Shown piece by piece: positions 27,001-30,000 of a stretch of DNA of 64,000 nt. Position 1 is the first letter of the stretch. Each line of letters begins with the position of its first letter. This DNA comes from Puniceicoccales bacterium. Lineage in GTDB: Bacteria > Verrucomicrobiota > Verrucomicrobiia > Opitutales > JAIRLM01. The stretch is taken from positions 37,117 through 101,116 of the forward strand of contig JAIRWT010000010.1 of assembly GCA_031268795.1 (NCBI GenBank). Reading direction: 5' to 3'. The position numbers are program-made.

Positions 27001-30000
27001 GCTGCGCCATTGCCGTCGGAAAATGAATCGGGTGTCACATTGAGGATTCCCCAGACAAAGTGGTTTTTTCTCATGGTTATTCATACTTTCCATGCAGTTT
27101 TGAGCAATAAACATCACAAATCTTGTGCTAAATTTTCTAAGGAACACGCCTATATGTCATATACATGACCTCATTGCTGCGAATAAGTTCTCCAAGCTCG
27201 ACTTCGGTGACGCTGCTATCGCTGATCATGTACCATTTGCCTCCCCGGCGTACGTACGACACGTAGTGTCCATAATTCGCAGTAGTGCCAATGTGGCTTC
27301 CGAAAAAACAAAGCTGATATGTTATACCGTGAAGTGTTAGTTTTTGGGGAAACTCAATTGGACCATTTTCCTTTTCGATTTTCCCTCTTTCTAGCTCGGC
27401 AAATCTTTTTATAAAAAAATTTCGAAATATGCCAAAGTCTTTCAATGTGCAGACGCGAGTCGCATCGCGCAACTCCTTACATTCCGCACAATACAGTTGG
27501 TCATCTCCTTGCAGCAGCTCCTCGCGTTCATGCCAGTCTATAGCCTCTGCTAAAGAATTTTTACGAGCAAGTCCGATATTAGGCTCCGATTGCCACGATG
27601 GCGCAAGGTGTTTGCAGGGAAAGTATTCAACTGCAACGTGTGACATGCCGCCAAAATTGTAAGATAGACCTACAACTTCCGGCACTTCATAACAGAGCCC
27701 ATAAGCACAGTTTAACTGCTTGTTCTTATAAATTCCAGATAAAATTAACAGCGCCAAATCTTCTTCTGAAATTTTTCCACCCAAGAAGGCCGCTTCAATA
27801 GTATCGTTTACATAATCATATCGCATCTTATCAATCTCAAGTCCGTCTAGCATTGCTATTAGGCATTCATGCGAGCAATGCTGTGCGCTATCTGCAAAAG
27901 TAGGATTTCGGTGAGCAAGCGCATTTTTGAATTTTTCAAACGACTCCCTTGTCCACGGAGTTCCTTTCTCCAAGCAGTTAAAAACTTCTATTAGGCATTC
28001 GCGCATATCGCCACCGGGTGAAGTCGGTGGAAAAATTTTACCTAGCACATGAACTAGCATGCGAAGAAAATTGTGATGATATGCGCATTGAATCGCGGTA
28101 TTTAGATAGCACGAATTGCCGTAGTTTGGAATTCCAATTGGCGGGCCTGTCGGATCCAAATTCTTTTCTAACATCCGCAGCGCGACACCGCGCGCCCAAG
28201 ACAAATTAAATTCTTCCATGGATTTTTTCTTGGGAAGTTCTATTCCAGTGTCCGATTGGACTTCCGCCTCTGGCGCAGGTTCTAAATTTGAACTAGGCTC
28301 TTTTCGTGCATGTTGTGCAGGGAGTTCTTCTGACGCAAGTTGTGCAAGAATTTCGCGTTTTTCATGTGTTAGAGAACGAGAGAATCGCCAAACAATGCCG
28401 CCAATGGTAATAGGCACTTTGTTTCTTTTGTCGATGATGATGCGGGCCACAACCAGTACGGTACCAGCGGGGATGAAGATGATGCATAATATGAATACGA
28501 TCACATCTTTCCACCAAGTCGGGGTAAATCTTTTAGTATTTATTCGCACAAAAATTCTATCCGATTCTTCCTGCGGAGATTTCACTGACGCAGCGAGAGT
28601 TTGTGATTCCGGTGAAATTGTGGCACCCAACATTCCGGTAGTACAATATATCAAAGTTGCGATATTGCAAGGACTAACATTTTGCGCTAGTCGTTAACCG
28701 CAAACATAAAGCCCTAAGCTTTCGGTGAAAAATTTTTGAGGGTTGCGCGTTTTTTATCAAAATGGCCAATGTGGCGCCGCGCCGCAGCGATGATGCGTAA
28801 TCGTGCGGATGCCAGATTGCCGTACCCCGCGCATGCTCATGCAAAAATGTTCTCCTTCCACGCGGACGGCAACGGCCTTTGAACCTAGCCGATGAAAAAT
28901 CGACTCCGCCAATTCCACGGTCATGCGCTCCTGCAGCTGGAGTCGATGTGTGAATTTTGCCAGCATGCGAACTATTTTGCTCAATCCGATTATCTGGCCA
29001 TTTTGCGGCCAGTATGCGATGGAGATTTTGCCAACGAATGGCAGTAGGTGATGTTCACACAGTGAACTAAATGGGATTTCATGCATCTCAATCCAGTGGT
29101 CATAGGCAGGCACGTCAAAAAAAGTTAACTCTTCCTCGCTATCGCCATAGCCATCCAGCAACTCAACCAGCGAATCGACCACACGCTGAGAGGTTTTTCC
29201 CATGCCCGCGCGCCCTGGATTTTCTCCCAATTCCCTAAGGATGGCGGACAAAGCATCTTTAAATTGTTCGAATTCCAGCATGACTCTTGAAAAAAAAGTT
29301 GTGCAATAAAGGCAAGCAAATGGTAGAAAAAGCTGCCGAACGAGTATGGCCATGCTAAGCAAAAAGCATTGACTCATTTCCGGCCTGAATAATTATAACT
29401 GCATGGCAGATTTAAATTTAGACAAAACAAAATGCGAGGAAGTTCGCGGATTGCTTCTACAGTTACTAGGGAGTACATTTGCGCTTTATCTTAAAACCCT
29501 TGGCATCCATTGGAATGTGAAAGGCGCCAATTTCCGCGGTGTTCATACGTGGACCAATGAGCAATATGAGTCGCTGCAGGGCGACGTGGATGCGATCGGC
29601 GAGCGAATTGTGCAATTGGGCGGATATGCGCCGGCAACCTTTGAGGAAATGGGCCATTTGTCGCAAGTAATGCTTGCGCGAGAATTCCGTGATGCGGGGG
29701 CCATGCTTCGGGCATTGGTCGAAGACCATGCGCTTTTGGTACGATTGGCCCGCAAAATTAGCCAGGTGGCGGCAAATGCCTCCGATGGCGGGACCACGTC
29801 TTTAATGGATTCATTTATTCAAAGCCACGAAAAGCTCATTTGGATGTTGAGCAAGAGCATTGAGTAAAATTTTATCGCATGTGTACCGCTTTGGCGTGCG
29901 CATTCAAGAGAAGCGCTCCAAGAGGTAAGTATTTAGCTGTGGACAAGTGGCATTTTCGTCCCTACAGTGGCGGGCCATGACGCTTACGATGGAGCAGCGG

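Follow-up and report, generated by a model that had tools for sequence, protein, structure and literature searches.

Ubiquitin-specific proteases (USPs) are rare in bacteria, a point made by the first-pass annotation of the locus considered here and in agreement with the literature (PMC10719079, PMC10643670). The characterised bacterial deubiquitinases of this class are four, TssM of Burkholderia pseudomallei/mallei and SnUSP1-3 of Simkania negevensis (PMC10719079, PMC10643670). Here we analyse a gene for a USP-type cysteine protease (27137-28633, minus strand) that lies between the folate biosynthesis genes folE and folP in a 64,000-nucleotide stretch of DNA (hereafter the window; contig JAIRWT010000010.1 of assembly GCA_031268795.1, positions 37,117 to 101,116). 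The source is a metagenome-assembled genome (MAG) of Puniceicoccales (Verrucomicrobiota) and not a chlamydia, and our search of the literature found no USP described in Verrucomicrobiota. The automated annotation already names the product a ubiquitin carboxyl-terminal hydrolase, and this is not a new kind of system. Rather, it is a concrete, easily testable candidate deubiquitinase of a known but very small kind, from a new phylum and with a conserved anchor module, and it adds Verrucomicrobiota, and with them probably the symbionts of termite-gut protists, to the known range of bacterial USPs; no host-manipulation mechanism is known for such symbionts.

SnUSP1-3 resemble the window USP in several respects of architecture and organism. 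They combine full USP domains with hydrophobic regions thought to attach them to a membrane; their length is roughly 520-530 amino acids (aa) or more, with a catalytic domain that begins at about residue 170-190, similar to the layout of the window protein (PMC10643670). Simkania is also, like the source bacterium, a member of the PVC (Planctomycetes-Verrucomicrobia-Chlamydiae) superphylum with a type III secretion system (T3SS). On the other hand, SnUSP1-3 come from Chlamydiota and are experimentally active on ubiquitin probes (PMC10643670), whereas the window USP comes from Verrucomicrobiota and is a predicted enzyme. Moreover, the family of the window protein has its own N-terminal module built around a transmembrane (TM) helix (TKRFxPxWWKD-TM-NKxPI), and the window protein itself differs from SnUSPs by a Cys in place of Asp253 (D253C) and by having three of the four zinc-ligand cysteines. 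TssM (PDB 8ssi, 8pz3) is likewise a bacterial USP-class effector with a Cys-His-Asp triad (PMC10719079), but its sequence match to the window protein is weak (E about 1e-7) and confined to residues 461-490 around the His box. It is devoid of Fingers, and has a 'Littlefinger' loop, an N-terminal Ig-like domain and type II secretion (PMC10719079); the window USP, with its predicted canonical Fingers and N-terminal TM anchor, is not of the TssM type.

With eukaryotic enzymes such as USP2, USP21, USP46, USP12 and USP36 the window protein shares the predicted Thumb-Fingers-Palm organisation, the Cys and His boxes and the Gln and Glu residues that bind the ubiquitin tail, at an identity of about 18-30%. 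Unlike them, it is encoded in a bacterial operon without introns, carries a TM anchor and no accessory domains, and has lost two conserved residues, the QxD Asp and the first of the zinc cysteines. ChlaDub1/Cdu1 of Chlamydia trachomatis is also a membrane-anchored deubiquitinase effector, but belongs to the CE clan and is not a USP. The same logic of tethering by a single TM segment applies to SnVTD and SnOTU, with predicted TM regions (PMC10643670), although the VTD and OTU protease classes differ from USP.

A USP catalytic domain behind a conserved membrane module

The first-pass annotation had read a membrane-anchored USP with both signature boxes in the open reading frame (ORF) 27137-28654, and the boxes are indeed there (GIPNYGNSCYLNTAIQ at residue 174 and GHYVSYVRRGGKWYMISDSSV at residue 462 in the 505-aa numbering). 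This mechanical ORF (minus strand, 505 aa) opens at a TTG at 28654. The true start is probably the ATG at 28633, since the alignment with the closest homologue (P0002) begins at the Met of this codon and since the deposited NCBI protein (MDR1456962.1, 'MAG: ubiquitin carboxyl-terminal hydrolase [Puniceicoccales bacterium]'), 100% identical to the window protein, has 498 aa. Unless the 505-aa frame is named, residue numbers refer to this 498-aa protein.

The catalytic domain (residues 161-498; 27140-28153), with Thumb, Fingers and Palm, is recognised by the Pfam profile PF00443 (UCH/USP) at E = 5.3e-21 and 75.8 bits (gathering cutoff 23.9), the match extending over profile positions 1-243 of 254 and residues 173-489 (505-aa numbering). 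The best sequence matches in PDB are human USP15, USP36, USP21 and USP2 (E about 1e-14). In an alignment of 51 USPs, the window protein keeps Asn170, Cys175, Gln182, Gln251, Glu256, His447, His456, Tyr457 and Asp472. Its Cys box (28109-28126), with the motif PNYGNSCY, holds the oxyanion Asn170 (28124-28126) and the nucleophile Cys175 (28109-28111) in columns that are invariant or nearly so, and its His box (27218-27268) holds His456 (27266-27268), the gatekeeper Tyr457 and Asp472 (27218-27220), the columns of His456 and Asp472 being invariant and that of Tyr457 nearly invariant. The codons were verified in both boxes. The catalytic Cys and His, whose absence had been named beforehand as one observation that would overturn the assignment, are thus both aligned.

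An AlphaFold model built on the same 51-sequence alignment has a mean pLDDT of 81, mostly above 90 at residues 140-498. When searched against PDB with Foldseek, it matched ubiquitin-bound USP2, USP21 and USP46, and also USP12, USP4 and USP1, with a probability of 1.00, E about 1e-22 and TM-scores of 0.75-0.81 (target-normalised) over about 360 aligned columns. Given this coverage, the predicted domain includes the Fingers, whose predicted beta-strands (residues 329-400) align to those of canonical USPs. The profile match, the aligned Cys/His/Asp, Asn and Tyr and the predicted fold confirm the family membership originally claimed: the window protein is a genuine USP-family (MEROPS C19) cysteine protease and, as judged from its sequence, probably a catalytically active one. 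A large family-specific insertion in the catalytic domain was considered and rejected, only two short segments (282-286 and 306-319) being family-specific.

The single N-terminal TM helix that had been noted alongside the USP boxes also stands, the hydrophobic segment being present and kept in homologues. The helix (residues 44-66, VIVFILCIIFIPAGTVLVVARII; 28436-28504) is supported by hydrophobicity, by the model and by conservation in the family. The protein has one very hydrophobic segment, VIVFILCIIFIPAGTVLVV, with a Kyte-Doolittle value of 3.07 over 19 residues and an apparent free energy of membrane insertion (dGapp) of -2.8 kcal/mol on a crude scale without positional weighting; on this scale P0002 scores -3.2 kcal/mol, and more divergent family members score -0.7 and +1.0 kcal/mol. 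The helix is preceded by a region predicted to be disordered (residues 1-43; 28505-28633) that ends in a TKRF(T/S)PxWWKD motif, and is followed by a conserved basic juxtamembrane segment (residues 67-90, IDKRNKVPITIGGIVWRFSRSLTH; 28364-28435), identified by charge and by conservation of the module, and by a low-complexity Pro/Glu/Ala-rich linker (residues 91-160; 28154-28363). In the AlphaFold model, where pLDDT falls below 50 at residues 1-37, 80-118 and 121-127, a helix at 39-70 gives way to a short hairpin and then to the linker, predicted to be disordered at about 91-127 and joined to the catalytic domain by a helix at 144-157. The linkers of the homologues consist of Pro-rich repeats and vary in length.

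The pattern TKRF(T/S)PxWWKDVIV...C.I..P.G..LV..RI.ID..NK.PI.I.GI.W..SRSL is common to the window protein and the homologues P0002 and P0158, and a recognisable version of it is present in P0068. Over 87 aa the N-terminal module is 53% identical to that of the homologue from a second Puniceicoccales MAG (LBB26), as compared to about 35% for the catalytic domain, and a six-frame search of the window and three Puniceicoccales loci found the module only in USP genes. The catalytic residues, for their part, are kept in homologues at 62%, 44%, 37% and 24% identity. This retention, together with the stronger conservation of the module, suggests that the whole architecture is under selection. A TM module so strongly conserved could help to reveal how effectors are targeted to host membranes. 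The flank on the C-terminal side of the helix has a net charge of +3 in all four members examined, which by the positive-inside rule would place the catalytic domain on the cytosolic face of the receiving membrane. The region at residues 1-43 is a candidate secretion or targeting signal: its first 37 residues are predicted to be disordered and 37% of its first 30 residues are S, T, P, N or Q by a plain residue count. No recognisable cleaved signal peptide was found on the window protein.

A single-gene insertion of narrow distribution

An exhaustive HMMER (phmmer) scan of 1.84 billion representative proteins (E <= 1e-3) gave 4657 matches, of which only a handful are close relatives, and every named top match is a USP. 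The nearest is P0002 (62% identity; Puniceicoccales MAG protein LBI34_02060), probably a paralogue from the same assembly as the window USP, because the two NCBI accessions are 143 apart. Next come P0010 (44-45%; a metagenome fragment), P0011/P0158 (35-38%; Puniceicoccales MAG GCA_031282835.1, LBB26) and P0068 (24-26%). An all-against-all BLAST comparison resolved three bacterial groups: clade A with the window protein, P0002, P0010 and P0011; clade B with P0068 and a second USP, P0074, from a Puniceicoccales MAG that is probably the same as that of P0011, as suggested by the proximity of their NCBI accessions; and clade C with proteins from Lactobacillales and Cytophagales MAGs. The best matches outside these groups are eukaryotic or unlabelled metagenomic USPs (23-32% identity), among which no donor lineage stands out. 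Giant multi-USP matches (P0009, P0012-P0015 and P0017) were discarded as vertebrate USP17/USP18 tandem arrays merged by gene prediction, which are not meaningful relatives; the summed scores of such merged gene models are misleading in similarity rankings.

No relative was found when species-representative genomes were scanned with the window USP, and two metagenome scans (one with alignment A4, the other with P0002 as the query) gave no match; a profile search of a 5.8-billion-protein set had only two already known proteins among the matches listed. As a separate observation, USP domains of separate clades occur in P0016 (Lactobacillales MAG, MDR1473649.1), P0022 (Cytophagales MAG, MDR2402134.1) and P0074, with similar MDR accession prefixes, suggesting that bacteria acquired USPs repeatedly in one type of habitat. 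P0016 carries C-terminal YRLYNPNxGxHHYT repeats.

In the window, the genes follow one another on the minus strand in the order folE (GTP cyclohydrolase I; 28757-29377; PF01227, 170.6 bits), USP, folP (dihydropteroate synthase; 26292-27074; PF00809, 224 bits), a folB-folK fusion (dihydroneopterin aldolase and 6-hydroxymethyl-7,8-dihydropterin pyrophosphokinase; 25451-26308; PF02152 and PF01288) that overlaps the end of folP, and tgt (24197-25384). The closest genome among the species representatives, Puniceicoccales Pcl387_bin45 (a MAG from the lower-termite gut; locus L003), has the order dps-folE-folP-folBK, with proteins 84% (Dps), 71% (FolE), 71% (FolP) and 67% (FolBK) identical to those of the window. 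In this genome the folE stop overlaps the folP ATG by 4 nucleotides (nt; ATGA) with no USP in between, which supports the proposed insertion between folP and folE. Nucleotide homology between the two loci ends one base past the folE stop and resumes at the AACC-ATG of folP. The intervening segment of about 1.68 kb (27079-28755) holds only the USP gene and AT-rich spacers of 123 nt before the ATG and 62 nt after the gene. The window folE ends four codons before its L003 counterpart (...HWPF-stop at 28757-28768 versus ...YWPFDWQP-stop at 7990-8004 of L003), so that the insertion has truncated the C-terminus of FolE and abolished the ATGA coupling with folP. The two loci make a clean natural before-and-after pair for the insertion of a eukaryote-type effector gene into a translationally coupled housekeeping operon. 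A folE gene directly upstream of folP is also found in some distant phyla (e.g. Lachnospiraceae and Clostridiales MAGs).

At the insertion we found no target-site duplication, inverted repeats or flanking repeats beyond chance, and no mobility gene adjoins the window USP; the similarity between GCAACC and TAACC at the two junctions is weak and extends over too few bases to be taken as evidence. The comparison of composition suggested in the first-pass annotation was made against 32 Pfam-supported genes of the window, from which the USP gene deviates in GC content (0.441 vs 0.485 +/- 0.025, z = -1.8), in GC content at third codon positions (GC3; 0.407 vs 0.498 +/- 0.050, z = -1.8) and in codon adaptation (z = -2.8). 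Many of the ORFs in the window that lack a family match share this profile. The LBB26 homologue resides elsewhere, between rnpA and pheT (locus L001, 9776-11341, plus strand), with a DDE_3 transposase fragment directly downstream (11860-12174, plus strand). NCBI annotates this homologue from a downstream start (446 aa), thereby losing the conserved TM module, while the tblastn match runs from 9776 and the JGI call has 533 aa.

The empty site in L003, the atypical composition, the different location of the homologue and the tiny, patchy bacterial family with eukaryotic USPs as its next-best matches support the horizontal acquisition proposed at the outset, and with it a derived single-gene insertion in the folE-folP junction; the USP domain is ultimately of eukaryotic origin. 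Co-transcription of the USP with the fol genes is plausible from their common strand, the spacers of 123 and 62 nt and the lack of a terminator-like site: between folE and tgt the minus strand has no predicted terminator-like hairpin. Promoter-like sites were not enriched over shuffled sequences (11 vs 8.0 +/- 2.5), and no riboswitch was found, the Rfam matches in the window being tRNAs only. With the insertion splitting a translationally coupled pair, folP and folBK would need either transcripts that run on through the USP gene or a new promoter within the 62-nt spacer. As to the fol genes themselves, the best FolP matches among species representatives after L003 (71%) are from Ignavibacteria/Bacteroidota (43-48%), with a Verrucomicrobiae MAG at 40% (L004-L082), so the history of the fol block itself may be unusual.

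Proposed role and alternative explanations

The reading that we consider reasonably probable is that the window USP is a horizontally acquired, host-directed, membrane-tethered deubiquitinase effector, whose activity, export, anchoring in a host membrane and association with a host we infer. According to this scenario, the protein would be exported by a bacterium living with or inside a eukaryotic cell, and its N-terminal helix would anchor it in a host-derived membrane, either that of a symbiont-containing vacuole or that of another organelle. The positive C-terminal flank would hold the catalytic domain on the host-cytosolic side, and the flexible linker would let it sweep the cytosolic face, where Cys175, His456 and Asp472 would strip membrane-associated proteins of ubiquitin, or of a ubiquitin-like modifier close to it. 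Removal of ubiquitin might then protect the bacterium from ubiquitin-dependent autophagy or degradation. SnUSP1-3 of Simkania, like other deubiquitinase effectors of bacteria, have been proposed to play such a role (PMC10643670).

The weakest link of this scenario is delivery, for which the type III injectisome of the genome would be the leading candidate. A module of non-flagellar T3SS genes, tyeA - sycN-like - sctX - sctY-like - sctV (29947-33736, plus strand; Pfam TyeA, YscX and FHIPEP), is divergent from folE and begins 1.3 kb from the USP. The NCBIfam equivalog for hrcV/SctV scores 906.5 bits (cutoff 692) and SctX 67 bits, SctY and SycN being sub-threshold; the SycN-like product is a predicted chaperone and the SctY-like one a TPR protein. 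Upstream of the module there is no sctW/yopN; dps (29403-29867, plus strand) stands there instead, between folE and the module. No literature linking Puniceicoccales to T3SS was found. [quoted passage not shown] Among the Clostridia, endosymbionts of termite protists have acquired eukaryote-like genes independently, and ubiquitinyl hydrolase domains are listed for related MAGs (PMC10579323). A T3SS-bearing, host-associated bacterium is a reasonable picture.

A more far-reaching version, which we find doubtful, would make the protein a member of a lineage-specific, membrane-tethered USP family of protist-associated Puniceicoccales (possibly of the 'Nucleococcus cluster'), a family that duplication would have split into two clades, at about two copies per genome. 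Here the N-terminal module (TKRFxPxWWKD-TM-NKxPI) would be a new device for export and for targeting to host membranes, more constrained than the enzyme. The enzyme would act on ubiquitin, or on a ubiquitin-like modifier of the protist, where symbiont and host meet, D253C marking a shift in specificity.

Several observations weigh against a host-directed deubiquitinase. On the side of the enzyme, its QxD-x-x-E box keeps Gln251 and Glu256 but has Cys at position 253 (27875-27877), where Asp is found in 50 of the 51 aligned USPs, including all other family members, and Cys in the window protein only. This substitution, the main sequence-level caveat, could reduce activity or alter specificity. 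The zinc ribbon of the Fingers (27479-27625) is degenerate. The CxxC remnant recorded in the first-pass annotation is real (a single CAEC at 389-392 in the 505-aa numbering, i.e. Cys382 and Cys385) and represents the second half of the ribbon, while the first half keeps only its second Cys (Cys340), with Tyr337 at the place of the lost ligand, so that three ligands out of four are left; homologue P0158 retains all four. A four-Cys ribbon is common but not universal among USPs, and several active USPs do without zinc. His342 is unsupported as a substitute for the lost Cys, His being frequent at this column in USPs that have all four (14 of 46).

On the side of acquisition and export, the compositional deviation of the gene is moderate (z about -1.8 for GC and GC3). 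The TM helix exceeds the intermediate hydrophobicity of typical T3SS TM substrates, and a helix of such strength could keep the protein in the bacterial membrane. No chaperone gene adjoins the USP in the ORF and Pfam annotation of the window. The 64 kb contain no T3SS apparatus genes other than the module described above, and thus only a part of the system, whose genes appear to be scattered; in L003 the module is not beside the fol block, so that the adjacency of USP and T3SS may be coincidental. Finally, the habitat and lifestyle of the source bacterium, probably as a partner or inhabitant of a termite-gut protist, are deduced from its relative and from the NCBI accession series.

The very hydrophobic helix, the missing T3SS adjacency in L003 and the missing chaperone make retention in the inner membrane the main rival, although we regard it as unlikely. 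The protein would then be a resident of the bacterial membrane with its domain in the cytoplasm (following the positive-inside rule) or in the periplasm, acting on a bacterial substrate, e.g. of an unrecognised ubiquitin-like system, or as a general peptidase. The strength of the helix in the window protein and P0002 (crude dGapp of -2.8 to -3.2 kcal/mol, Kyte-Doolittle about 3.0) speaks for it, typical T3SS TM substrates being less hydrophobic and just below the threshold of targeting by the signal recognition particle (PMC6110835); so do the lack of an adjoining chaperone gene and of a recognisable cleaved signal peptide, and the possible co-transcription with housekeeping fol genes. On the other hand, the helices of divergent family members are far milder (-0.7 and +1.0 kcal/mol), and chlamydial Inc proteins are hydrophobic substrates that T3SS does handle (PMC6110835). 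A bacterial substrate is also at odds with the neighbourhood, where no E1, E2 or ubiquitin-like gene was found near the USP and no PADLOC defence-system match, nor any to known bacterial ubiquitin-like systems, and with the domain itself, which keeps the ubiquitin-binding Fingers and the Gln/Glu tail-binding residues of eukaryotic USPs. Furthermore, the family is found in MAGs from protist-rich habitats.

The Cys at the otherwise invariant QxD position could instead point to an exported effector acting on something other than ubiquitin, such as NEDD8, SUMO, a Fubi/ISG15-like or a protist-specific modifier, or to a non-catalytic ubiquitin binder, a reading to which we give still less credence. 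USPs specific for ubiquitin-like proteins (USP18 for ISG15, USP36 for Fubi) do occur among the structural and sequence matches, and of the Simkania enzymes SnUSP2 shows reactivity towards an ISG15 probe as well and SnUSP3 leaves chains uncleaved (PMC10643670). However, the window protein retains its catalytic residues together with Glu256 and the gatekeeper Tyr, the other members keep Asp253, so that the family as a whole looks canonical, and the nearest structural matches (USP2, USP21 and USP46) are ubiquitin-specific.

The window-specific changes at the conserved Asp and at a zinc ligand, along with atypical codon usage and very narrow distribution, are also what one would see in a recently acquired, decaying or neutral relic of transfer without a maintained function. 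This is quite improbable for a gene with an intact 498-codon ORF, with all catalytic residues kept across homologues down to 24% identity, with an N-terminal module conserved at 53% between MAGs and with several copies and clades within these genomes. An assembly or binning artefact joining eukaryotic host DNA to a bacterial contig, conceivable for a eukaryote-type domain in a metagenome-assembled source, can be practically dismissed, as the intronless gene lies in a deposited contig of 115 kb with same-strand bacterial fol genes on both sides within 62-123 nt, about 70% identical to the contiguous block of the relative, and as its homologue sits inside another bacterial contig between rnpA and pheT.

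Other features of the window

The window is an ordinary segment of bacterial chromosome with housekeeping genes (der, aroA, atpB, tgt, folD, dnaJ, pfk and others) and seven tRNAs. Interspersed among these genes are about a dozen ORFs without a significant family match, including those at 4047-5957, 6037-7467, 15755-17968, 19755-20459, 20393-21514, 38484-39770, 42681-43691 and 53267-54631. The listed ones mostly have low GC3 (0.38-0.46), and several share the atypical codon usage of the USP gene. Such ORFs may form a compositionally distinct accessory or effector class among the housekeeping genes. The first of them (4047-5957) gave only sub-threshold leucine-rich repeat matches and no useful PDB match. 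One further ORF (22770-23744, plus strand; 324 aa) lies where the GC content of the window is lowest (GC 0.433, GC3 0.366) and found no sequence match in Pfam, NCBIfam, PADLOC or PDB; it contains a HELGH (HExxH) zinc-metalloprotease motif and may encode another effector.

The ORF at 37915-38397 (plus strand, 160 aa) is almost certainly not a gene, as it is overlapped by a tRNA on the opposite strand (38088-38170, minus) and has a codon-usage z of -5.9. The 2 kb at 36001-38000 show a strong local GC skew (0.21-0.26), well above that of the rest of the window.

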